64,000 nt of DNA from an uncultured Candidatus Saccharibacteria bacterium (GCA_964429815.1 CAYSCM010000001.1:416001-480000), one strand, 5' to 3'. Shown: positions 8,257-51,611, counted from the first letter of the stretch. A program made the numbers and translations. The notes: generated from the sequence alone by a model not told the origin.

Positions 8257-9552
8257 ATGAAGACCTTTCAAACCGCCATTTTGCTTATTTTTGGGGCGCT
8301 CGCGCTCATCGGGGTGCTTGTCTTTGCGACCGTGAGCAACCAGAGCTCCGGCGGTATCGGAGCGGTTGCCGTTTGGGGGACGCTCCCGAAGGATTCCGTC
8401 GACTCGCTCCTCGCGCAAATAGAGACAAACCGTCATGACTTCGACCAGGTGCGCTACACTTACATCGACCCGGCGCTCTATGAGCAAAAGCTTCTTGAGG
8501 GGTTTGCCTCCGGCACAGGCCCCGATCTTTTCCTCGTACCGCAGGAGTCCCTTCTTGCACAAACGTCCCATATCGCTCCGATAGGTTATTCAACACTCTC
8601 GCAACGGGCGTTCAAGGACCGGTTCGTCCAGGAAGGGGAGCTCTACCTCAAGGACTCCGGCGCCCTGGCGCTTCCTCTTACGATCGACCCGCTAGTTCTC
8701 TATTGGAATCGGGACATGCTGGCGAATGGAGGCATCGCCAAACCGCCAAGCTTTTGGGATGAGCTCGTGACGCTCGCGCCGAAGCTCTCCGTGCGCGACA
8801 GCAAGGGGACCGTAACGCAATCGGCTATTGCACTTGGCGAGTACCGCAATATCACCAACGCAAAAGCCATTCTCTCCGCTCTTTTCATGCAGGCGGGGGA
8901 TTCTATCGTTTCTCGTGATGCGGACGGCAACCCCTACGCGTCGCTCGCGGCGGAAAATTCCTCGCTTACCTCCGCGGGACCCTCGGCGATTCGCTTCTAT
9001 ACGCAGTTCGCGAACCCCATCAACACCATCTATTCCTGGAACCGCGCGCTTCCCGAATCGCAAAAAGCGTTTTTGGCAGGGAGTCTGGCGTTTTATGTGG
9101 GGTTCGCGAGCGAAGCGGCAGGACTCCGCGCCCAAAATCCCAACCTAAACTTTGATGTCGCTCCATTGCCGCAAACGCGCGACATAAAAAATAAGCTCAC
9201 TTACGGCGCGATGCAGGCCATTTCGGTCCCCAAGACGACGCACAACCTCTCCGGCGCCACAGCGGTCGCGCTCGAGCTAGTGTCGGACGCCAACCTCGCA
9301 TATCTCGCCGACAAGCTCGGACTTCCGCCAGTGTCCCGCGCAGATCTTTCCTCACAGCCCCCCAGTGCCGCTCAGCAAGTGTTTTATGCGAGTGCGCTCA
9401 TAGCACGTGGATGGCTCGATCCGGCTCCGGAAAAAACGAATACTATCTTCCAGGATATGATCGAGGGGGTGACGAGCGGGAAGTTTGAAATTTCCGACGC
9501 ACTCTCTCGTGCATCCCTTGCGCTCGATGAGCTTTTACGAGGTAATCAATAG
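8257..9552 (+). CDS. extracellular solute-binding protein (ABC-type, family 1), orphan
   Basis: N-terminal TM/signal, then a DLFLVPQESL...LPLTIDPLVLYWNRDML...FLAGSLAFYVGFASE pattern typical of SBP_bac_1. No permease or ATPase genes adjacent. Confidence 0.6.
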   Translation: MKTFQTAILLIFGALALIGVLVFATVSNQSSGGIGAVAVWGTLPKDSVDSLLAQIETNRHDFDQVRYTYIDPALYEQKLLEGFASGTGPDLFLVPQESLLAQTSHIAPIGYSTLSQRAFKDRFVQEGELYLKDSGALALPLTIDPLVLYWNRDMLANGGIAKPPSFWDELVTLAPKLSVRDSKGTVTQSAIALGEYRNITNAKAILSALFMQAGDSIVSRDADGNPYASLAAENSSLTSAGPSAIRFYTQFANPINTIYSWNRALPESQKAFLAGSLAFYVGFASEAAGLRAQNPNLNFDVAPLPQTRDIKNKLTYGAMQAISVPKTTHNLSGATAVALELVSDANLAYLADKLGLPPVSRADLSSQPPSAAQQVFYASALIARGWLDPAPEKTNTIFQDMIEGVTSGKFEISDALSRASLALDELLRGNQ

Positions 9553-9553
9553 T

Positions 9554-9964
9554 ATGTTTCGCAAAAACCGTATTGCCTTATCCGCTCTTGCACTACTTTT
9601 AGCACCGGCCCTTACACTTGCGCAGCAAGGCAGTTTTTCGGGAAATGGCGTTCAATTTTCATTCCGAAACCCCCTTGGTCCAAATGTGAATGATCTCGGC
9701 ACCTTCCTTAAGCTCCTCCTTAATTTTGTGACTGAGCTAGCGATCCCCATAATTGTCCTCATGCTCATCTACACCGGCTTTAAATTCGTCGCGGCACAGG
9801 GGAATTCAGACAAACTCGCGGAAGCGCGGCGCATACTCTTGTGGACTCTCATCGGCGCGGGCATTATTCTCGGGGCCAACGCGATACTCCTTGCCATTCA
9901 AGGCACGGTGACCCAAATACGGGGGGCAACGGGGCTTGTCGATATCTTCTCGCACCTCACGTAG
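9554..9964 (+). CDS. TrbC/VirB2-like (T4SS-type) pilin-like protein, paralog 1
   Basis: 137 aa: signal peptide (ALTLA-QQ), then two hydrophobic helices (LAIPIIVLMLIYTGFKFV; ILLWTLIGAGIILGANAILLAI). ATG overlaps the upstream stop (ATAGTATG). Track ORF 9485 start is moved to 9554. Confidence 0.55.
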   Translation: MFRKNRIALSALALLLAPALTLAQQGSFSGNGVQFSFRNPLGPNVNDLGTFLKLLLNFVTELAIPIIVLMLIYTGFKFVAAQGNSDKLAEARRILLWTLIGAGIILGANAILLAIQGTVTQIRGATGLVDIFSHLT

Positions 9965-9967
9965 CCC

Positions 9968-10306
9968 ATGAAGCGACCACTTCGAACGCTTGTCCTCACA
10001 CTGCCACTCCTCGCGCCTTCCGTAGCGCTCGCGGCGGCGCGGCCGCAAAATTTCGCCGACTTCGTCCACCACCTCACGAGGCTCCTTAACCTTACGATCC
10101 CCATCGCATTCGCTATCGCACTTCTTGCGTTCTTCTGGGGGCTAGTGAAATTCATATACCTCTCCTCCGAGAGCGATTCGGCCCGTGAAGATGCCAAAAA
10201 CATCATGCTCTACGGAGTGCTCGCGCTTTTCGTCATGCTCTCGGTGTGGGGCTTCGTGCGGATTCTCCAGGAGACTATCTTTGGTACCTCGGGCATTCTT
10301 CCGTAG
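9968..10306 (+). CDS. TrbC/VirB2-like pilin-like protein, paralog 2
   Basis: 112 aa: signal peptide, then IPIAFAIALLAFFWGL...EDAKNIMLYGVLALFVMLSVWGFVRILQETIFG. Two-TM topology shared with paralogs 3 and 4. Confidence 0.6.
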   Translation: MKRPLRTLVLTLPLLAPSVALAAARPQNFADFVHHLTRLLNLTIPIAFAIALLAFFWGLVKFIYLSSESDSAREDAKNIMLYGVLALFVMLSVWGFVRILQETIFGTSGILP

Positions 10307-10405
10307 AGAGCTTGTCCACATTGACCCTTTTACGCTCCGAGAGCGAGGGCGTACTATAAGCTCGTACAACAATTAGCAAACCTTAGCCCATAAATCGACA
10401 TTTTC

Positions 10406-10759
10406 ATGCGTAAATACGCTTTACTCGCAACCGCCTATCTTCTCCCCGTCGTTGTATTCGCGCAGGGGAGCGGCGTTGAAGGGCTTCTCAACAAGCTCTC
10501 CCGCTGGATAAACATCGCGACCCCGATAGTTTTTGCGCTTGCACTCCTAGCGTTTTTCTGGGGCCTCGCGGTCTATGTTTTTAACACCGGTGATGAAGAA
10601 AAGCGCAAGCAGGGCAAGGACATCATGATCTGGGGCGTCATCGCGCTTTTCGTCATGGTCTCGGTCTTCGGCATCGTGCGCATTATTCGCGAGACTTTCG
10701 GCATTAGCGCCAACGAAACCGCTCATATCCCGACCGTTCAAGGGACGAACGCTCAATAG
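10406..10759 (+). CDS. TrbC/VirB2-like pilin-like protein, paralog 3
   Basis: 117 aa: signal peptide, then TPIVFALALLAFFWGL...GKDIMIWGVIALFVMVSVFGIVRIIRETFG. Clearly homologous to paralog 2. Confidence 0.6.
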   Translation: MRKYALLATAYLLPVVVFAQGSGVEGLLNKLSRWINIATPIVFALALLAFFWGLAVYVFNTGDEEKRKQGKDIMIWGVIALFVMVSVFGIVRIIRETFGISANETAHIPTVQGTNAQ

Positions 10760-10768
10760 CGTTGGCCA

Positions 10769-11032
10769 ATGACCGCGGCCACCACTTTCGTCAGGGCGAT
10801 AAACGACTACATCATCAACCCTATCATCGGGCTCCTCTTTGCTGCGGCCATGGTCCTTTTTATCTGGGGCGGCGCGCAAATGATTTTCTACCCTGGCACC
10901 GAAGATAAGCGCGAGGACGGCAAGCGTCACCTCTTTTGGGGCATCATCGGGATGTTCATCATGGTCTCGGTCTACGGACTCCTCAATCTCATCACGAGCA
11001 CATTCGGCCTCCCGCACGTCGTCAGCCACTAA
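10769..11032 (+). CDS. TrbC/VirB2-like pilin-like protein, paralog 4 (short N-terminus)
   Basis: 87 aa: IIGLLFAAAMVLFIWGG...GKRHLFWGIIGMFIMVSVYGLLNLITSTFG. Same core motif as paralogs 2 and 3. Confidence 0.55.
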   Translation: MTAATTFVRAINDYIINPIIGLLFAAAMVLFIWGGAQMIFYPGTEDKREDGKRHLFWGIIGMFIMVSVYGLLNLITSTFGLPHVVSH

Positions 11033-11080: not shown

Positions 11081-12109
11081 TTAGAGCTTGTTGTACCAAT
11101 ACTTGAGTGGAACCGGTTCACCCACGATCGAGCGGAACCGAATGCACTTAGTGGGCTTCATTCCTTCGTTGAAGAAGCCCTGATACACCTTGATGGTACC
11201 GTCGTGGAAGTATGCTGCGGCGACTATCTTCAAAATGCCCGGATTCTCCGTCCGGTACATCAAGTTGTAGCCGTCAGGAATGGGCACGCAGCGTGACCAC
11301 TCGGTCGGTACCAGGAAGGTTGAACCTTCAGCCGTAAAGGCAGGGTGGACACGTGGTTGGACCCGCGTTGGTGCCGCCTTGGCCTCCTGGAAGTAGTGGG
11401 GGAACATCTTCGGTGCGGTGTAGATCGCAATTGCGATTGCGAGCAGTGCCGCGAATCCGCCGGCGAAATAGTGACCGACTTCCTGCTTCGTCTTTCCCTT
11501 GCGCGACCCGAGGATGACCACCAACGCAACGGCCGCCACGAATGCGTAGTAAAACGCGAGGTAGGGCTTGAAGTTGTTGATCCACCAGAATTTAAGCTCG
11601 GGGTCGCCCTTCCAGTAGGCAAAAAAGTAGAGGATCGCTGGGATGAAGATCCCCATGAAGGCGATCCATACCATTGTGCCACCCGTGAGGTTGCCCTTAA
11701 TGAACTTGCCGATCTTCGGCAGGGTCCAAAGAAGGATGAACGCAACAAACAGGATGATGCCCGCTTGCATCAGGAAGTCGACGAGTGGCTCACCGGTGAG
11801 GGTGAGTAGGTCGAGCTCCTCCATAGTGTTGTACGTCCAGAGCGAAAGCACGGGGTAGTAGGCGTAGACGAGCAGGCCCACGATCGTCGCAAAGATGATC
11901 GCGAGGATTACGATGCGACGCCGTTGCTTTTTCGGCGCAGTGGTTGTGGTTTGGGTCGTCGTGGTCTGCTGAGCCTGCTGCGATTGTGCGGGCGGTTGAG
12001 CGGAAGCTTGCGCTTGCCCACCCTTGACGGTAGCGATGGTGCCCGAGGCGACCGCCCCGGTCATTTTCATTGCCGCCGTGCTCGCTGAGTAGCGTTGTAC
12101 GGCCATCAC
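11081..12109 (-). CDS. polytopic membrane protein (5 predicted TM + about 100-aa C-terminal soluble domain), function unknown
   Basis: 342 aa. Q/T-rich N-terminus, TM helices (IVILAIIFATIVGLLVYAYY, MVWIAFMGIFIPAILYFFAYW, others), C-terminal domain with two Cys. Start overlaps the upstream SPFH stop (ATGA). Confidence 0.5.
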   Translation of the reverse strand: MMAVQRYSASTAAMKMTGAVASGTIATVKGGQAQASAQPPAQSQQAQQTTTTQTTTTAPKKQRRRIVILAIIFATIVGLLVYAYYPVLSLWTYNTMEELDLLTLTGEPLVDFLMQAGIILFVAFILLWTLPKIGKFIKGNLTGGTMVWIAFMGIFIPAILYFFAYWKGDPELKFWWINNFKPYLAFYYAFVAAVALVVILGSRKGKTKQEVGHYFAGGFAALLAIAIAIYTAPKMFPHYFQEAKAAPTRVQPRVHPAFTAEGSTFLVPTEWSRCVPIPDGYNLMYRTENPGILKIVAAAYFHDGTIKVYQGFFNEGMKPTKCIRFRSIVGEPVPLKYWYNKL

Positions 12110-13299
12110 TTATCTCCTTCTTTTGGCTTGAGACCTTGGGGGACGGCTTTGATCACCGCCCCGAGCGTGGCCGCGGGGGATGCGAGACCGTCGGCGCCGA
12201 CGGCGATGAAGGTATCGACTTCCTTAGCCACTTGGACTGCAGTGTCGCGTGCGAAGATGAGTTCGAGCGCACGCGGCTTGTCGCCGCCTTGCGCCGCGAG
12301 CTTTTCGATCGCTTGTGCGTCTCCTTCCGCCTCGTACGAGGTAGCATCTCCCTTCGCCCGACCAGCAATACGGGTGGCCTCACCCTCGGCAAGCGCCTGA
12401 GCGGGCTTCTGTATCGACGTATTGAGCGCGTGAGAGAAATTGAAGAGCTTGATGTTGGCGGTATCGACTTCGACGCCGCCCTTGCCAAGTTTCTCTTCAA
12501 TGAGTGTTCGCAGGTCTACGTTGATAGTCGACGTGCCCCGAAGGGCCTCGGCTGCCGTCCTCGACGGAAGTGTTTCGCTCAGCCCCGTCACGATTGTGTC
12601 TTCAGCTTGCTTCATGGCGGCCGCAAGGTCGCCATTGTACAGGACGAAGAACTCTCGCAAATTTCCTTTTTCGGGTCTGATCTTAAGGATCGCAGCGACC
12701 TCCGCAGTGATGCGGCGGTCGAGCGGATCCTGACCATCCTTGCCGGCGAACGTGATACGCACCGGCGGGTAGTACCCCTCAGCGACGGTGTCTTTGTCGC
12801 CACGATCAACGAGTTCCGGCTCGCTCGGGATCTCTTTTTGCAGCAGCTCGAGATCGGTGATCCGGAGCATGCTGAGAAAGAGGGGAGCATAAACGGGCCC
12901 GTTGGGAAGTTCGCAAACGACCCAGCCGAAGATGCTGAGCACTGCTCCTTCGTTGATATCTACCTCCTCGAAGCTCTTCCACGTGTAGAGTGTGAAGAGC
13001 ACAAGAAGGATCGGGATCACGGGAATGTTGAGCTGGCCGAGCTTGATTGAACTTGCCCCGAGGTTGGAGTAAACGACCAGCAAGGCAAAACTAAGAAGGA
13101 GGATGTTGGCGAAGAGTGCAGCAAGGTGCCAGACGAACCAATTTCTGGTCAAGCGCCCCATCACCGAAGCCTTGTGCCGTTCCTCGTCGGAACCGCCTGA
13201 GGCGGGACCTGCAGGGGGCGTTGGTGGGGTGGGAGGGGCTGGAGGTGTTGGAGTCCCAGCGCCGTTTGGCGGCTGGGTTGGCGTTGCTGTCTGTTGCAT
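12106..13299 (-). CDS. SPFH/band-7 (stomatin/prohibitin-like) domain protein with Pro-rich N-terminus
   Basis: 397 aa. PTPP repeats, one TM, then a band-7 core (VDLRTLIEEKLGKGGVEVDTANIKLFNFSHA...AEGEATRIAGRAKGDATSYEAEG). Confidence 0.7.
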   Translation of the reverse strand: MQQTATPTQPPNGAGTPTPPAPPTPPTPPAGPASGGSDEERHKASVMGRLTRNWFVWHLAALFANILLLSFALLVVYSNLGASSIKLGQLNIPVIPILLVLFTLYTWKSFEEVDINEGAVLSIFGWVVCELPNGPVYAPLFLSMLRITDLELLQKEIPSEPELVDRGDKDTVAEGYYPPVRITFAGKDGQDPLDRRITAEVAAILKIRPEKGNLREFFVLYNGDLAAAMKQAEDTIVTGLSETLPSRTAAEALRGTSTINVDLRTLIEEKLGKGGVEVDTANIKLFNFSHALNTSIQKPAQALAEGEATRIAGRAKGDATSYEAEGDAQAIEKLAAQGGDKPRALELIFARDTAVQVAKEVDTFIAVGADGLASPAATLGAVIKAVPQGLKPKEGDK

Positions 13300-24915: not shown

Positions 24916-24940
24916 TCAACCTACCAGAATAATTGTTTGA

Positions 24941-24973
24941 CCCCAGGCAATCCGGCCTGGGGTTTTATGTTTT
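24941..24973 (+). terminator. intrinsic terminator
   Basis: ccccagg-caatccgg-cctgggg, then ttttatgtttt. Confidence 0.65.
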
Positions 24974-25013: not shown

Positions 25014-25055
25014 CAAAACAAAAACCCACAGCGAAAGGCTGTGGGTTTTTGTTTT
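25014..25055. terminator. bidirectional intrinsic terminator
   Basis: A-tract, cccacagc-gaaag-gctgtggg, then tttttgtttt. Confidence 0.6.
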
Positions 25056-25073: not shown

Positions 25074-26366
25074 ATGAGCAAAAAGCTCGCCTTCTTTATA
25101 TTTATTGTGTCTGTCGTTGCCGTGTTGGTCGCGACAGCAGTGCAGACATCCGCGGCTCCCATCGTGCCGCAGGTATCCGCCCAGCCCGGCTCTGTTGAAG
25201 GCGGTCCGCTTCGCGCCTGCGACCTCCTCACCCTCTACAACAACATCCTCCGGTTCGGGATCTATGCTGCGACGGTTATTGCGACCCTCATGCTTACCTA
25301 CGCGGGCTTCCTCTACATCACCTCCTCGGCCAAGATAGGAAACATTGAAAAGGCACACGGGATTTTTACCAATGTCATCATCGGCTTCATCATTGTCCTC
25401 GTCGCGTGGCTTATCGTCTCGACTCTTTTGCGCGTGTTTACCGCGCAATCGAACTACAATCCGTTCGCCGCGATACAGTGCAATGTTGAAACACCGACGA
25501 CGACGCGCAACGTCACCCCTGCCGGATTTGAAACACAGTCCTATTCTGACTATCCCACCGGTCTTCCCGCCGGAGAGGTTCCGGTGTGCCTCACCGCCGA
25601 TAGCGACAGCAATTGCACCACCTACGCTTCCATCGGGCTGCAAGACTCGACCCTTCTTGAGTGCCAGGATCCCGGAGCAACCGGCGAGCAGTACTGTTGC
25701 TCGATGACTAACGCCGACGGCTCATGTAAGCTAGCGGTCACGGTCGGGCCAAATGGCCAACCTTCCTACAACAACGATGTGGGTGAGAATCTCTACGTAA
25801 ATCCGAATGTGGGGCTCACTGGCGTTGCCCCGACAGAAGGTATTTGCTCCCCGGATGCGCTCCAGAGCGTGTGGGGAGATAACGCCGCAACCGCTGGGTG
25901 CATATGCGCTTCAGAAAGTGGTGGGGGGCTCTACAACGGCATTACGGGCCCGCGCACGGACGTCATGCTCATCGATCAACAGCAGCCAGATGGTTTTTAT
26001 CCAGGTTTTTCGGCATGCCCATTCCAGCTCAACGTCACGAGCCTTCCGGCACAATATGGTGGATGTGGCGCGTATACCTGCAATACCAACACACAGGCGT
26101 GTATGATAAACGGTGTATTAACGCCACCCAATCCCACGAAATGCGATACAAATGTATCAGCCTATGAGCAAACCCTTGGATACAAGGAAGGGGCTCTGAG
26201 TCGAAACGGAGGCTATTGCCATGTGATAACCAATCAACCCGCCTTTAACTCCTGCGTGCAAAACCTTCTTACACCCGGGGGATGTGCCAAGGGAGCTCAA
26301 TATCTTCTTGCCAATGGCGGCTGGGCGCACTGGAGTACGAGCGCTAAAAAATGCCGAGCTATATGA
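25074..26366 (+). CDS. pilin-like (TrbC/VirB2-type two-TM domain) N-terminus fused to a large Cys-rich extracellular domain
   Basis: Start set to ATG 25074 (MSKKLAFFIF); the track start 25041 lies within the terminator. Signal peptide, then LRFGIYAATVIATLMLTYAGFLYITS...NVIIGFIIVLVAWLIVSTLLRVF, then about 300 aa rich in Cys/Gly/Thr/Asn. The N-terminal domain is paralogous to 26920-27813. Confidence 0.5.
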   Translation: MSKKLAFFIFIVSVVAVLVATAVQTSAAPIVPQVSAQPGSVEGGPLRACDLLTLYNNILRFGIYAATVIATLMLTYAGFLYITSSAKIGNIEKAHGIFTNVIIGFIIVLVAWLIVSTLLRVFTAQSNYNPFAAIQCNVETPTTTRNVTPAGFETQSYSDYPTGLPAGEVPVCLTADSDSNCTTYASIGLQDSTLLECQDPGATGEQYCCSMTNADGSCKLAVTVGPNGQPSYNNDVGENLYVNPNVGLTGVAPTEGICSPDALQSVWGDNAATAGCICASESGGGLYNGITGPRTDVMLIDQQQPDGFYPGFSACPFQLNVTSLPAQYGGCGAYTCNTNTQACMINGVLTPPNPTKCDTNVSAYEQTLGYKEGALSRNGGYCHVITNQPAFNSCVQNLLTPGGCAKGAQYLLANGGWAHWSTSAKKCRAI

Positions 26367-26923
26367 GAAAACTATTACTCACCATCGTGCTCCTTCTTGT
26401 AGCGGTTGTCATCGGTGGTGGAATCTACGTATTCCTCGTTTCGCGCAGCACCCAGCCGGCAAGCGTACAAAACGAAACGGGAACTTCGCCTTTTGGCAGC
26501 GGCGCAGGAGCTATTCCTTCTGGCGGCAGCGGGCAAGGAAATACCACGTCCAGCCAAACCTCGGAGCAATTCATCGTCCTGGGAGCTGACGGTAGCATGA
26601 TTTCGGTAGCTGACTTCCGCTCAGAGCCGGGAGTGCAAGAGCTTTCTGACGGGAGCTATCGGCTCGGTCCATTCACCGGAAGCTCGACGTATCAAATTCT
26701 CTACTATGCCGCCGACAAGAGCTTCACGGTGACTCTTCTCGAGGAGCCACTGGGAGCCACGAGAGAGAGCGCAGAGCAGTACCTCATGAATGCTCTCCAA
26801 ATCGGCAAACCCCAGATGTGCAGATTGCGCTATGGTGTCTACGTGCCCATCAAGATCAGCCAGTTCTATGCGGCCACCAATCTCGGATTTAGTTTCTGTC
26901 CTCGCGCGATAAAACTACCATGA
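26351..26923 (+). CDS. hypothetical membrane-anchored protein (N-terminal TM, extracellular domain)
   Basis: 190 aa. Overlaps both neighbours; an alternative ATG at 26363 forms an ATGA overlap, and its 3' end forms ATGA with the next gene. TM LLLTIVLLLVAVVIGGGIYVFLV. Confidence 0.45.
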   Translation: MPSYMRKLLLTIVLLLVAVVIGGGIYVFLVSRSTQPASVQNETGTSPFGSGAGAIPSGGSGQGNTTSSQTSEQFIVLGADGSMISVADFRSEPGVQELSDGSYRLGPFTGSSTYQILYYAADKSFTVTLLEEPLGATRESAEQYLMNALQIGKPQMCRLRYGVYVPIKISQFYAATNLGFSFCPRAIKLP

Positions 26924-27813
26924 TACGCACCGCCGCAATCGCGCTCATTCTCTTGTGCGTCTTTGTCGTGACACCCTTTGCGCACGCGCAGAGTTTTGCT
27001 GGTCCCATAGTCCCCGATTGTGGTGGTGGCCCGTGCCAAGCCTGCCACCTCGTAAAGCTTGCGGACAACCTCCTGCGTTTCGGCATCTATCTGGCGACCG
27101 TCATTGCGACTCTAATCCTTGTCTATGCGGGTATTCTCTACATCACCTCAGCGAGCAACCCCAGCAATATTTCGAAAGCACACAGTTTATTTGGGAATGT
27201 CATTCTCGGTTTTATCATCATACTCATCGCTTGGATCGTCGTTGCTACGCTGCTGCGGGTTTTTCTCGGACAGGGCAAAGCTCTTCCGTGGGAGCAGCTC
27301 ACCTGTAACGTCACGGCGAATCCTGGCCCGACACCCTCGACCACGCCTCCAGGACTAACCGTAGCACCCCTTGCAGCTCCGCCAGGGGAAGGACAGCTCA
27401 CTGATCCGCAGGCGCGCCTTTCAATTGCCGCCTATAATGAGTCTCATCCTGACGCGCAGGTGTTAACTTGTGGTGATACAGCTTCCTGCCCGGCAATTCG
27501 CGACCGCGTCCTGTACGGCGGTATTGATAACGGCCTTCTCCAAAATGTCCTTGATACTACCTCTGCGGCCAATAGGGGGAACACCATTGTTACCTCCGCG
27601 GCAAATGAGCGTACTTCAGCTTCCAATCACCCAAGCGGCAATGCAATTGATATATACGGCACAAGCGCTTTCAATGCCTATGTTCAAAGCTTTCCGGCGG
27701 TCCCAGGTCTTTCAAACACATACCAGGTCGGGAATTATCGATACTGGTGGGAGCCATCAGGCACGGCTAATTCAACAGGGGACCATTGGCATATCTCAAA
27801 GACCGGACGTTGA
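26920..27813 (+). CDS. pilin-like (TrbC/VirB2-type) N-terminus fused to a peptidase-M15-like (Zn D-Ala-D-Ala carboxypeptidase/cell-wall hydrolase) C-terminal domain
   Basis: N-terminus LLRFGIYLATVIATLILVYAGILYITS...NVILGFIIILIAWIVVATLLRVF parallels 25074. C-terminus carries SNHPSGNAIDIY and GDHWHIS, matching the M15 S-x-H-x-x-G-x-A-x-D and D-x-x-H zinc-ligand motifs. Confidence 0.5.
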   Translation: MIRTAAIALILLCVFVVTPFAHAQSFAGPIVPDCGGGPCQACHLVKLADNLLRFGIYLATVIATLILVYAGILYITSASNPSNISKAHSLFGNVILGFIIILIAWIVVATLLRVFLGQGKALPWEQLTCNVTANPGPTPSTTPPGLTVAPLAAPPGEGQLTDPQARLSIAAYNESHPDAQVLTCGDTASCPAIRDRVLYGGIDNGLLQNVLDTTSAANRGNTIVTSAANERTSASNHPSGNAIDIYGTSAFNAYVQSFPAVPGLSNTYQVGNYRYWWEPSGTANSTGDHWHISKTGR

Positions 27814-27873
27814 CGCCTTCCTCGCGGTCTTGTATATTCTCCTTCACAGGGCAAGGCCCTTATTTTAATTTTC

Positions 27874-28098: not shown

Positions 28099-28170
28099 GG
28101 GCCTATAGTTTAATTGGTAAAACAGCGGTCTCCAAAACCGCCATTCCCCGTTCAAGTCGGGGTGGGCCCG
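28099..28170 (+). tRNA. tRNA-Trp (anticodon CCA)
   Basis: Acceptor GGGCCUA/UGGGCCC, anticodon stem GCGGU/ACCGC with loop CUCCAAA, T-arm CCCCG-UUCAAGU-CGGGG. The classic rpmG-tRNA-Trp linkage. Confidence 0.85.
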
Positions 28171-29071
28171 CCTGGAATTTATACGAGAGCGCTTTCTTCG
28201 CGGACGAAAACCAACGTATGCCGTTGTCACGTTTCCACCACGTCATCTGTCGACGCGAGAACTGCCAAATGGCAGCCTCAAGCCGCGTGAGCATCTCCTC
28301 TTTGGATAGTTTCCCCTCAAGGTAGTCGGCGAGATAGCGATACTCAAGTCCAAGCTCACGCATGCGCTTCAAGCGGAGCCCCCTTCGTCGTAGGCGCTTC
28401 GCCTCAGCGACCATTCCCTCTCGTATACGGGCATGAAGACGTTTCGCAATGTTGGCTCGGAGTTGCGAGTCTTTTGGCCGTATCCCGATTGTTACTGCCT
28501 CGTAGCGTGGTTTCGGGAGCTCTGCGGTTTTTTCTGCTGCGAGTGCGACCTCGATGGCGCGAATGAGACGCACGGGATTTTGCTTGTCGATAGTGAGATA
28601 GCGACGCGGGGCGAGCTCTTTAAGGAGTGTTTTGAGTTCTGGGAGCGTCTTCTTTCTTAAATGATGTCTGAGAGCGGCGTCTGGCCGGACATTGGCAAGC
28701 TTTGTCTTACCGAGTGCGGCATCGATGTAAAACGCCGAGCCGCCGACCATGATGGGCAGTTTACCGCGCCGCGCTATATCCTCGATAGCGGCGCGGGCAG
28801 CGATAGCGAAATCATACGCAGTGAAGACCCGCTTAGGGTCAGCGATGTCGAGGAGGTGATGGCGGACACCTTTCATCTCACGTTTCGTAATTTTGCCCGT
28901 GCCAATCGTGAGACCGCGATATACCTGTCGAGAATCCGCGGAAATTATCTCGCCGTTAAGTTTTTTTGCCAGTCGCACACCCAGGCCGCTTTTCCCAGAG
29001 GCTGTGGGGCCGACTATAACGAGCACTTTTGTTCTTACGGACCTGTTTTTGTATACTTCTTTCGTACTCAT
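28103..29071 (-). CDS. miaA: tRNA dimethylallyltransferase
   Basis: VLVIVGPTASGKSGLGVRLAKKLNGEIISADSRQVYRGLTIGTGK and the RRQMTWWKRD C-terminal motif. The last about 22 codons overlap tRNA-Trp on the opposite strand. Confidence 0.85.
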   Translation of the reverse strand: MSTKEVYKNRSVRTKVLVIVGPTASGKSGLGVRLAKKLNGEIISADSRQVYRGLTIGTGKITKREMKGVRHHLLDIADPKRVFTAYDFAIAARAAIEDIARRGKLPIMVGGSAFYIDAALGKTKLANVRPDAALRHHLRKKTLPELKTLLKELAPRRYLTIDKQNPVRLIRAIEVALAAEKTAELPKPRYEAVTIGIRPKDSQLRANIAKRLHARIREGMVAEAKRLRRRGLRLKRMRELGLEYRYLADYLEGKLSKEEMLTRLEAAIWQFSRRQMTWWKRDNGIRWFSSAKKALSYKFQAGPPRLERGMAVLETAVLPIKL

Positions 29072-50076: not shown

Positions 50077-51543
50077 CTATTTGAGAACGCTCCACATGCC
50101 CTGATCCTCGCCGCCGTCCATTTTAAAGACGGCAACGCCGCGCACGCCGAGGCCCCGTGCGAGGTCGACTTTGTCTTTGATAGCCTGCGCGTCGTTCCAG
50201 GTCATGTAGTTGAAAGGTTTGCTCGCATCGATTTGTGAGCCGAGATTTTGTGCAACGGAAGTTGTCGCGACCTCTTGCTGCGTTTGCGTGATGTTACCAT
50301 CGGCCGGCGCCTGCGGAAGCGTCGCTTTGTCGTAGATGAAACCTACCTCGTTCGCGCTTGTGCGATGCACGGCGATGCCAAGCCGCGCGGCGATGTCGGT
50401 CGCATATCCGGGGTTAAACGGCCAGAGCACTTCATACTGAAAACCCGAGCCGGAAAGTGGCGTCACGTGGTACTCGTAGCCGTAGGTCGGAATGCCGATG
50501 ATGAGCTTATTGCGGGAAATGGTTTGTGCTGCAAGACGCACAAGATCTTCAACCCAGCCGGGGTCCGCGACCGGTGCGTACGGGGCGGAGCGTGCGACGT
50601 TTAAGCGCTTATCGACCGTCGTCTGATCATAGGCCATGATCTCGACGCGATCGCAGTACTTATTGAGCGCGACGTAGTCGTTGGCGTAGTCGGTCGCGTC
50701 CGGCGGAATGGTGTCGCCCGGAAGATAGCGGTCCTCAAGCGGCATGCGGGCTTCGACGGTGCAGTACACCCACTTTTGCCCCATGCGCTGGTAGAGGCCT
50801 TTGAGGAAGGTCGAGAAGTAGTTGATGGTCTCATGCTTTTTGGCTTCAAAGTCGATGTCTATGCCGTCAAAGCCCATGCCCTTCACGGTCGCCGCGATCT
50901 CGTCTTCCAGCGCGATACGCTTTGTGGTATTGCTCAATACCGCCTGCATCGCATCTGCGTTGCCCCAGAGAATGCTCGGCACCACGCGCACCTTGGTGGC
51001 CTTTGCCTGTGCGATAAAATCGCTCCAAGGTTCAAAGCCAAGTTGTGCGGTATCGATAAGATGACCATCTGAGCTCACGTTGTAGGAGAAGGGCATTACA
51101 CTTGCTAGCTGAGGCAGGTGGGGGATGACGTCTCGGGTCGCTGTCGCTACTCGCCAGTAGGGAACCCAGCCGCTTATTTCAAATTTTCCGGTGGCAGCGG
51201 GTGTAAGAGTGAGGGAAATTTTTGCAGGATTTTTGGGGTACGTGGTCCCAAGCGTGAGAGCAGCTTGCGTTCTTGGGCCATACACACCGTAGCCGGTCGC
51301 ATCTTCTGTACAGATGACCTCCTGCGCGCACTGGAACTTTTTAATCGCTGCTTGTGTGAGAGGACCAAAGTAGCCGGAGTCTTTTCCGGAGGCAAGATAA
51401 CCCTGCGCGATGAGTTTTTGCTGGAGAGTAGCCACATCGCTTCCTGAATCGCCAAGCGATAGGGAGCGAGTCGCTGCGGAGGCCGTGGGCGCGATGAGGA
51501 GTACGAAGAAAAGCGGAAGTGCAAATAAAAAACGTCGTGGCAT
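50077..51543 (-). CDS. GH18 (chitinase-like) glycosyl hydrolase with N-terminal peptidoglycan-binding domain and signal peptide
   Basis: PG_binding_1-like LGDSGSDVATLQQKLIAQGY...FGPLTQAAIKKFQ. GH18 catalytic FDGIDIDFE. Start taken at ATG 51543 (MPRRFLFALPLFFVLL signal). Confidence 0.7.
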   Translation of the reverse strand: MPRRFLFALPLFFVLLIAPTASAATRSLSLGDSGSDVATLQQKLIAQGYLASGKDSGYFGPLTQAAIKKFQCAQEVICTEDATGYGVYGPRTQAALTLGTTYPKNPAKISLTLTPAATGKFEISGWVPYWRVATATRDVIPHLPQLASVMPFSYNVSSDGHLIDTAQLGFEPWSDFIAQAKATKVRVVPSILWGNADAMQAVLSNTTKRIALEDEIAATVKGMGFDGIDIDFEAKKHETINYFSTFLKGLYQRMGQKWVYCTVEARMPLEDRYLPGDTIPPDATDYANDYVALNKYCDRVEIMAYDQTTVDKRLNVARSAPYAPVADPGWVEDLVRLAAQTISRNKLIIGIPTYGYEYHVTPLSGSGFQYEVLWPFNPGYATDIAARLGIAVHRTSANEVGFIYDKATLPQAPADGNITQTQQEVATTSVAQNLGSQIDASKPFNYMTWNDAQAIKDKVDLARGLGVRGVAVFKMDGGEDQGMWSVLK

Positions 51544-51611
51544 GTTCACATAGTAGCAGACGAACATAAAGAGGGGCGCTTACTCTTCGGCATCGGGTAC
51601 TAGCAGCAATT

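Follow-up and report, generated by a model that had tools for sequence, protein, structure and literature searches.

Pilin-type modules joined to putative cell wall hydrolases in a three-gene cassette of Candidatus Saccharibacteria

The cassette and its three genes

The genes that I will consider here, numbered 1 to 3, form a compact cassette in the chromosome of an uncultured Candidatus Saccharibacteria bacterium (GCA_964429815.1, CAYSCM010000001.1:416001-480000), and all positions given below are counted from the first letter of this 64,000-nucleotide stretch, to which I refer as the window. Two of the three proteins begin with a module related to VirB2-like pilins and end in a domain that resembles a peptidoglycan hydrolase, and the gene between them encodes a smaller, putatively membrane-anchored protein. 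The three open reading frames (ORFs) overlap, all lie on the + strand, and are enclosed by a double hairpin (24939-24964, 25015-25055) on one side and a weak terminator (27848-27860) on the other:

25074..26366, + strand: gene 1, 430 amino acids (aa); signal peptide, VirB2-like pilin module, variable Cys-rich spacer, lysozyme-like domain
26363..26923, + strand: gene 2, 186 aa (190 aa from 26351); N-terminal transmembrane (TM) helix, low-complexity linker, conserved domain predicted to be extracytoplasmic
26920..27813, + strand: gene 3, 297 aa; signal peptide, VirB2-like pilin module, Pro/Thr linker, M15-like putative zinc-peptidase domain

The initial annotation of this region described an overlapping operon of three genes with an ATGA junction between genes 2 and 3, and it is borne out by the reading frames, by the overlap itself (CCATGATAC) and by the independent gene calls on the public contig, which yield identical proteins of 430, 186 and 297 aa. 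It also took gene 2 for a membrane-anchored protein beginning at 26351; the TM helix is there, but the start is more likely to be 26363, where the sequence forms a second ATGA overlap, with the gene 1 stop, and from which the recorded 186-aa product runs. Both junctions are likewise ATGA overlaps of 4 nucleotides (nt) in a homologous locus (L002), and such overlaps at both gene junctions indicate translational coupling.

Pilin modules and hydrolase-like domains

The modules that open genes 1 and 3 lie at the following positions:

25155..25484, + strand: gene 1 pilin module, about residues 28-137; two hydrophobic helices, flanked by Cys49 and Cys136
26989..27309, + strand: gene 3 pilin module, about residues 24-130; helices 38-76 and 82-115, with Cys34, Cys39 and Cys42 before them and Cys129 after

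These modules had been called paralogous and pilin-like, and both descriptions have fared well. An alignment of 104 aa that pairs residues 24-127 of gene 1 with 24-120 of gene 3 shows 58% identity (E=1e-41), and the consensus letters quoted for the shared stretch of about 110 aa are present. Against the Pfam family T4SS_pilin (PF18895), which has a curated cut-off of 26.6 bits, gene 1 scores 31.0 bits and gene 3 comes slightly under the line at 24.1 bits (E=4e-5); close relatives of the modules clear the cut-off and also match TrbC/VirB2, and a stand-alone pilin that is 46% identical to the gene 3 module (P0002) reaches 39.7 bits and matches TrbC with E=9e-5. The AlphaFold model of gene 3 contains a signal helix followed by a helical hairpin over the residues listed above, with a predicted local distance difference test score (pLDDT) of about 80 (mean of the whole model 70.6), and the layout typical of PF18895, a signal peptide and then a hydrophobic hairpin of two helices, is found in the modules. 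The family is also characterized by small proteins standing alone beside virB4, and in this respect genes 1 and 3 depart from it, being fusions of 297-430 aa with no VirB4 near. The same holds when they are set beside the VirB2-like pilins described in Patescibacteria (Wang et al., 2023, PMC10633639; Quinonero-Coronel et al., 2025, PMC12102498): family, signal peptide and two helices are common to both, but the described pilins are small, stand-alone and encoded near virB4, whereas in the cassette the module is followed by a linker and a putative enzyme domain of 140-300 aa, away from virB4.

The distribution of Cys residues around the modules, read from genes 1 and 3 of the window, P0002 and P0005-P0028, depends on where the module stands in the protein. 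Modules placed before another domain have one or three Cys ahead of the first helix and one soon after the second, whereas in modules that form the C-terminal end of a protein the corresponding counts are two and zero. The even total per module suggests a disulfide between the N and C flanks, which would fit a topology with both ends out and the fused domains outside the membrane. Such a putative staple recalls the head-to-tail cyclised VirB2/TrbC pilins. Other arrangements of the module also occur, as in a Candidatus Peregrinibacteria metagenome-assembled genome (L007, 4996-12219), in which one protein of 323 aa has three pilin modules in tandem and another, of 1789 aa, has a single one.

Downstream of its module, gene 1 is composed of a spacer and a C-terminal domain:

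25485..25820, + strand: gene 1 spacer, residues 138-249; 7 Cys, Thr/Gly/Asn-rich, poorly conserved (alignments A3 and A4), pLDDT 21-33
25821..26363, + strand: gene 1 lysozyme-like (SLT_3-type) domain, residues 250-430; motifs FQLN and GGWAHW...C
25914-25916, + strand: Glu281, putative catalytic residue, in CICASES

The initial annotation had gene 1 continue as a surface domain with more than 20 Cys. A Cys-rich spacer does follow the module, but the protein has exactly 20 Cys (19 of these after the pilin module), and the lysozyme-like domain at the C-terminus had been missed. The equivalent of the spacer in one homolog (L021) is a PKD domain. Full-length orthologs are 47% and 45% identical to gene 1 (P0013 and P0014, respectively), and these two together with five further pilin fusions have their last 130-180 residues in common with it. 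The family profile A5, compared with PDB, retrieves the C-type lysozymes 6ukc (E=5e-4) and 3cb7 (E=0.03) with CIAxxES, FQIN and GWxAW..C in register, and members of the family match SLT_3 (best 4e-7), SLT, Phage_lysozyme2 and Destabilase, where the matches other than SLT_3 are weak and all fall in lysozyme-type families. With a Pfam cut-off of 27 bits for SLT_3 (PF18896), P0014 scores 27.0, the L015 homolog 35.0 and the L021 homolog 27.7 bits; gene 1 itself gives no SLT_3 match at this cut-off. E281, Q318 and Cys 258/276/357/394/427 are invariant in both alignments of the gene 1 family, and E281, which aligns with the catalytic Glu of lysozymes, is present in 8/8 sequences. As far as sequence goes, the affinity with SLT_3 and C-type lysozymes shows in C-I-A-x-x-E-S, F-Q-(I/L)-N, G-W-x-x-W...C and a lysozyme-like spacing of the conserved Cys; the differences are the score under the SLT_3 cut-off, several inserts and the lack of an Asp at the position of lysozyme Asp52, the last of which would place gene 1 mechanistically closer to a lytic transglycosylase or a goose-type enzyme. 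A likeness to a fusion of VirB2 and VirB1 functions had been proposed for gene 3, and it fits; since the last 180 aa of gene 1 are lysozyme-like/SLT_3, gene 1 is the more literal VirB2-VirB1 fusion of the two.

Gene 3 ends in a different kind of domain:

27382..27810, + strand: gene 3 C-terminal domain, residues 155-297; putative zinc peptidase of LAS/M15 (Hedgehog/DD-peptidase) type
27622..27651, + strand: SNHPSGNAID, that is S-x-H-x-x-G-x-A-x-D, with His237 and Asp244 as H-x6-D
27784..27792, + strand: H289-W-H291, an H-x-H motif; putative third zinc ligand and catalytic His

This domain had been assigned to peptidase M15 from SNHPSGNAIDIY (residues 235-246) and GDHWHIS (residues 287-293), and the assignment survives in part: the zinc-ligand motifs are exact and invariant in the family, but profile support is weak and no Pfam M15 match is obtained for gene 3 itself. 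An exhaustive HMMER search of 1.84 billion representatives gave six true homologs of residues 155-297, and the fusion recurs, since four of the six also bear a pilin module. All 7/7 members have T225, S226, H237, G240, A242, D244, E278, H289, W290 and H291, with the motifs in the order V-T-S, S-x-H-x-x-G-x-A-x-D (H-x6-D), H-x-H. The pattern S.H..G.A.D occurs in two places only among the six-frame ORFs of the window (77,650 residues), namely gene 3 and a short ORF at the window edge, and the bona fide Peptidase_M15_4 domain of another locus (L026) carries the same pattern as SVHAYGLAID. Compared with PDB, the family profile A2 has its best, though weak, match in 1LBU (E=0.077), the zinc D-Ala-D-Ala carboxypeptidase of Streptomyces albus (M15A), followed by about 20 Hedgehog N-domains, all aligned on H-x6-D, and 24 of the 27 among the PDB matches listed are M15A (1lbu) or Hedgehog N-domains. 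The HWH of gene 3 presumably corresponds to the H195-T-H197 motif at the C-terminus of 1LBU. Subthreshold Pfam matches point the same way (VanY in 4/7 members, best E=0.0029; M15_4 in 2/7, 0.0022; M15_3 in 1/7), the VanY alignment extends in two homologs to profile position 128/132, beyond both motif regions, and hhalign of the family with the VanY domain of another pilin fusion (P0022) gives E=8e-4. In the model the domain has a pLDDT of 85-94 in most 10-residue blocks, and its elements follow each other as in the M15 core (strand VTS, loop with His237, strand with Asp244, helix, hairpin, strand with HWH). The structural comparison that had been proposed as a check on M15 geometry gives a divided result: the element order agrees, but three fold searches with the full-length gene 3 model returned no M15 structure.

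Taken as a whole, gene 3 shares with the M15/LAS enzymes (1LBU, VanY, VanX, phage L-alanoyl-D-glutamate endolysins and the Hedgehog N-domain) the H-x6-D ligands, the V-T-S strand and a C-terminal H-x-H that would hold the third His, together with the invariant E278, and differs from them in lying under all Pfam M15 thresholds, in a spacing of about 45 residues from Asp to H-x-H with an extra beta-hairpin, in a window-specific Cys184-Cys190 insert, and in belonging to a sparse family of six homologs. In the absence of any M15 match above threshold it is filed here as M15-like, outside every defined Pfam M15 family; I consider it quite probable that it represents a divergent LAS/M15-like family with the M15/Hedgehog fold and zinc site. 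Scans of the gene 3 family against PHROGs and NCBIfam gave nothing useful and tblastn against phage genomes only noise, and a word-indexed homolog search returned nothing for the C-terminal domain by itself and, for the full-length protein, itself and one pilin. Three candidate relatives (P0003, P0004 and P0009) were rejected as repeat proteins in which a short G-N-S-I-D-V-Y-G..H-W stretch was matched many times, and an M23/lysostaphin type was set aside for gene 3, as its motif is H-x6-D and not H-x3-D and its model is alpha/beta and not all-beta.

Gene 2 ends in NLGFSFCP, and the alignment of its family (A6) has EPLG..R, C153 and LGxSFCP as invariant features. The family has no relative in Pfam or PDB, but homologs turned up in 19 metagenome loci.

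Recurrence, exchange and neighbourhood

The initial annotation knew of no described counterpart to a pilin module fused to a murein hydrolase, and in the searchable literature no description was found of such fusions, of a cassette of these three genes or of the family to which gene 2 belongs. Precomputed domain annotations, however, already have PF18895 plus M15 or SLT_3 in single proteins on record, and the fusion, far from being without counterpart in genomes, is one case of a recurrent and syntenic cassette. Homologs of gene 2 occur in 21 distinct loci (the window, L002, L008, L010 and 17 further metagenome loci); the gene directly upstream is a pilin fusion in 19/19 loci where it is visible and detectably lysozyme-like in 18/19, and a pilin-module gene comes after the gene 2 homolog in 14/18 loci with downstream sequence. 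A genome scan with alignment A3 found distant pilin loci only.

What changes from locus to locus is the C-terminal domain of the third gene. Among the cassette loci compared, the gene 3 type is found in the window only; an H-x-H type is common to L020, L024 and L025, L026 has a Peptidase_M15_4 domain (67.7 bits, E=1e-18), and weak matches to CHAP and NlpC/P60 were obtained in L019 and L013, respectively. The third gene of L002 (11847-12998) has a gene 3-like pilin module and then a C-terminal region of about 250 aa without Pfam match, which hhalign finds not similar to the gene 3 family, indicating that the domain was replaced rather than diverged. The order of genes can differ as well: L008 has pilin-Peptidase_M15_3 (55.7 bits, 6e-15), pilin-lysozyme-like and the gene 2 homolog, in that order, and L030 (2061-4257) has a member of the gene 3 family (P0006, pilin-M15-like, 333 aa) followed by pilin-SLT (PF01464, 405 aa), the two being identical in their N-terminal ~190 aa. 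Upstream of this pair lies a ClpB fragment of 166 aa, and a gene 2 homolog is missing there. The cassette of L022 stands within an array of small pilins.

The sharpest case concerns L026 and L024, which agree in 99.3% of 1346 nt as far as about codon 161 of the third gene; past that point they are unrelated. Among these near-identical strains (L024 1-2365, L026 799-2144, L027) an H-x-H-type domain is found against Peptidase_M15_4 after the abrupt break, and L024 2292-2365 repeats the 5' end of the third gene. The break points to tandem pilin-peptidase genes or to recombination; a true domain swap may have taken place, or the assembly may have jumped from one tandem gene to another whose 5' end is nearly the same.

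One way to make sense of such exchange, which I regard as possible but doubtful, is that genes 1 and 3 encode minor subunits of a VirB2-like filament of small pilins and digest the wall of a host at the site of contact, opening access for nutrient uptake or for the channel of a type IV secretion system (T4SS), with gene 2 shielding the glycan strands of the producer. The glycan-cleaving partner is kept and the peptide-cleaving partner is swapped repeatedly (gene 3 type, H-x-H, M15_4, M15_3, weak matches to CHAP and NlpC/P60, and one unrecognised domain), even behind nearly identical upstream DNA, and this repeated replacement fits a varied host stem-peptide chemistry better than one constant self wall, although the L024/L026 swap loses its force if it is an assembly jump between tandem genes sharing 5' ends. 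The same account would explain why gene 2 always stands after the lysozyme gene, as expected of an immunity gene, and it agrees with the pace at which the cassette proteins evolve, much faster than their neighbours (between the L002 genome and the window, gene 1 is only 45% identical, ClpB 89% and ParB 82%); yet the surroundings of the cassette are stable and of a housekeeping kind. Gene 1 homologs with long spacers or a PKD stalk would suit this account, and the linker is preceded by a complete module, including the W..I.C end of the stand-alone pilin P0002, but in gene 3 that linker is a short one of about 25-40 residues. F pili display peptides that are fused to the C-terminus of F-pilin, and the modular type IV pilins of Streptococcus sanguinis, e.g., PilB and PilC, carry grafted functional domains, so that a filament subunit with an extra functional module has precedent; the pilin fold and assembly machine of those pili are unrelated, however, their known grafts are adhesins and not wall hydrolases, and there is no evidence that a VirB2-type helical filament tolerates globular cargo of 140-300 aa. 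In its favour, too, is the proposal that Patescibacteria breach the envelopes of their hosts with lytic enzymes at the surface (PMC11665869). In its fullest form, in which modular pilins deliver a lysozyme and an exchangeable peptidase to the host wall, the type of peptidase tracks the host peptidoglycan and gene 2 is a self-protecting inhibitor of a new family, the idea seems to me just as doubtful.

The same pattern of a conserved N-terminal module with swapped C-terminal domains, and of a small membrane protein gene right after a hydrolase gene, could also call to mind a polymorphic toxin/immunity system for interbacterial competition, with the module as trafficking domain, the C-terminal domains as interchangeable wall toxins and gene 2 as immunity protein, for which the closest analogy would be the T4SS effector/immunity pairs of the Xanthomonadales (PMC6536674, PMC8740702). 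I find this highly improbable: gene 2 follows the conserved lysozyme gene and not the variable domain, the variable third gene has no conserved small gene after it, the locus is syntenic with no mobility genes seen, and a toxin of this build would remain tethered to the membrane of its producer.

The window itself is a chromosome segment of Patescibacteria type (candidate phyla radiation, CPR) with a G+C content of 52-60%, and it contains gyrA, IF-2, clpB, rpmG, miaA, parB, relA/spoT, topA and serS in addition to eight tRNAs. A neighbourhood with clpB upstream of the cassette and rpmG, miaA and parB downstream also exists in L002, L010 and L016; in L008 and L027 the clpB side only is visible, L030 has a clpB remnant, and loci of at least six other genomes have the clpB ... 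rpmG/miaA/parB neighbourhood. The remaining features around the cassette, and a second site of pilin genes in the window, are these:

24939..24964: second terminator-like hairpin, 5' of the hairpin at 25015-25055
25015..25055, + strand: perfect 18-base-pair hairpin, AAAACAAAAACCCACAGC-gaaag-GCTGTGGGTTTTTGTTTT, 19 nt 5' of the gene 1 ATG; read from the sequence
27810..27838: promoter-like site for rpmG
27848..27860, + strand: weak terminator-like hairpin after gene 3
9530..11029, + strand: array of four small stand-alone VirB2-like pilin genes; PF18895 30.6-46.6 bits, TrbC 29.4 bits

The hairpin at 25015-25055, with its A-run and T-run arms, could be a terminator, perhaps a bidirectional one, or an attenuator controlling the cassette, and because it lies inside the alternative ORF extension from GTG at 25041 it favours ATG 25074 as the start of gene 1. 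Further downstream, the miaA ORF (28103-29071, - strand) runs antisense across the whole tRNA-Trp gene (28099-28172, + strand); since the product exceeds the L002 homolog by 25 aa, the end of the ORF may be a lost-stop artefact, or the overlap may be true. A protein with PG_binding_1 and a glycoside hydrolase family 18 domain (50077-51567, - strand) may be a further wall- or chitin-degrading enzyme.

The array had been noted before as lying at 9554-11032, and it is real, with four members at 9530-11029; when the window is searched with a hidden Markov model (HMM) made from the two modules and from three small genes upstream, six ORFs with the module come out and no more, namely genes 1 and 3 and the four of the array. 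In this respect the window resembles the T4SS pilin arrays described in Patescibacteria, and the array putatively supplies the filament subunits of the same system as the cassette. Its fourth ORF (10760-11029, + strand; HMM E=1e-15) has no obvious signal peptide or clear start codon. Directly after the array (11081-13299, - strand) come a 342-aa polytopic membrane protein without Pfam match and a Band_7/SPFH protein, and in Pfam neither resembles known T4SS parts.

A possible wall-opening device for a T4SS-like pilus system

The closest parallel to the enzyme pair comes from Southlakia epibionticum, in which the T4SS-like system and VirB2-like pilins of Patescibacteria proved essential in the sole species tested (PMC10633639). 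Its essential T4SS locus encodes, beside VirB4, SEML1_0006, which is a two-lysozyme protein, and SEML1_0007, which has a Hedgehog/DD-peptidase domain without Pfam match (PMC10633639, Tables S1/S2), and six PF18895 pilins lie near these two genes and VirB4 (PMC10633639; PMC12102498). A survey found that most genomes with VirB2 homologs have no recognisable VirB1, and the monoderm T4SS hydrolases TraG (pIP501) and PrgK (pCF10) combine SLT with CHAP or LytM behind an N-terminal membrane anchor (PMC12102498). The cassette resembles TraG/PrgK and SEML1_0006/0007 in pairing glycan-cleaving with peptide-cleaving domains that would be membrane-tethered and extracytoplasmic, as is predicted for genes 1 and 3, and the SEML1_0007 peptidase is, like the putative one of gene 3, of a Hedgehog/DD-peptidase type undetected by Pfam. 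It differs from TraG/PrgK in splitting the activities over two genes and in using pilin homologs as anchors rather than a simple TM helix, from VirB1-type hydrolases in having gene 2 as an extra conserved partner and in lying outside a T4SS cluster, and from S. epibionticum, which carries the same enzyme pair unfused.

I lean, by a small measure, to the reading that a pilin-tethered pair of hydrolases supplies a VirB1-type, locally confined opening of the wall for a patescibacterial T4SS-like pilus system. The three genes would make up one co-translated envelope cassette, in which the products of genes 1 and 3, exported by way of a Sec signal peptide, would be inserted as VirB2/T4SS_pilin two-helix hairpins with both ends outside the membrane and the outer ends probably stapled by a disulfide. 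Each hairpin would bear a peptidoglycan-cleaving domain on a flexible linker, in gene 1 a lysozyme-like (SLT_3-type) cleaver of glycan strands using Glu281, and in gene 3 a divergent LAS/M15-like zinc peptidase cutting peptide stems or cross-links, with His237, Asp244 and His291 as predicted zinc ligands and His289 and Glu278 as candidate catalytic helpers. Gene 2 would be a single-pass membrane protein, translationally coupled to gene 1 and acting as partner or regulator of the lysozyme, and most likely it binds the lysozyme domain and restrains or positions it. Tethering the enzymes to pilin-type subunits would confine cleavage to the sites at which subunits are inserted or assembled, and the wall that is cut could be the cell's own or that of a host.

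A plainer account would have genes 1 and 3 encode membrane-anchored autolysins, with the hairpin merely an anchor and the enzymes remodelling the cell's own wall in growth or division without any tie to a pilus or T4SS. The position of the cassette between clpB and miaA, in a vertically inherited synteny far from T4SS genes, would suit such a role, and so would the finding that the module is also fused to non-hydrolase domains (fn3/PhoD_N-like, DUF5885, PKD) or stands C-terminally in large surface proteins, that is, behaves as a general surface-display anchor. However, the module is a full-length homolog of stand-alone pilins, the L022 cassette lies inside a pilin array, the same pair of enzymes is T4SS-linked and essential in S. 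epibionticum, and a housekeeping autolysin would not be expected to have its peptidase domain replaced so quickly, all of which make this account unlikely in my opinion.

The pilin-tethered, T4SS-associated reading has its own difficulties. The gene 3 C-terminal domain has no match in Pfam, NCBIfam or PHROG, and when every ORF of the loci compared was scored with the HMM of its family, the genuine M15 domains of L026 and L008 came out within noise. The AlphaFold model of gene 1, with a mean pLDDT of 49 (helices at about 260-282 and 388-426 reach 65-83), is too poor for a fold search, and an hhalign comparison of the gene 1 family with only hen egg-white lysozyme does not reach significance, though it brings the right motifs into register. 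A check had been proposed of whether the fusions recur beside T4SS or competence genes, and recur they do, but the large ORFs in the 64-kb window, and the sequence up to 10 kb from the cassette in relatives, yielded neither VirB4 nor any other T4SS ATPase, and the link to a T4SS is consequently one of homology and analogy. I also know of no experiment that shows PF18895 proteins forming pili.

VirB2-like pilins in Patescibacteria, wall hydrolases associated with T4SS, and the M15 and lysozyme families are all established subjects. Much of bacterial diversity falls to the Patescibacteria, which live attached to other microbes, and their route through cell walls is not understood; a wall-cutting function may hide in pilin fusions that have been overlooked by VirB1 profiles, and such fusions would explain part of the missing-VirB1 gap. 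The cassette furthermore yields a new and very sparse family of M15-like peptidases and, in gene 2, an uncharacterised family of partner proteins that may be regulators of a lysozyme, and the swapped peptidase domains form a natural series that could serve to predict the type of host wall.

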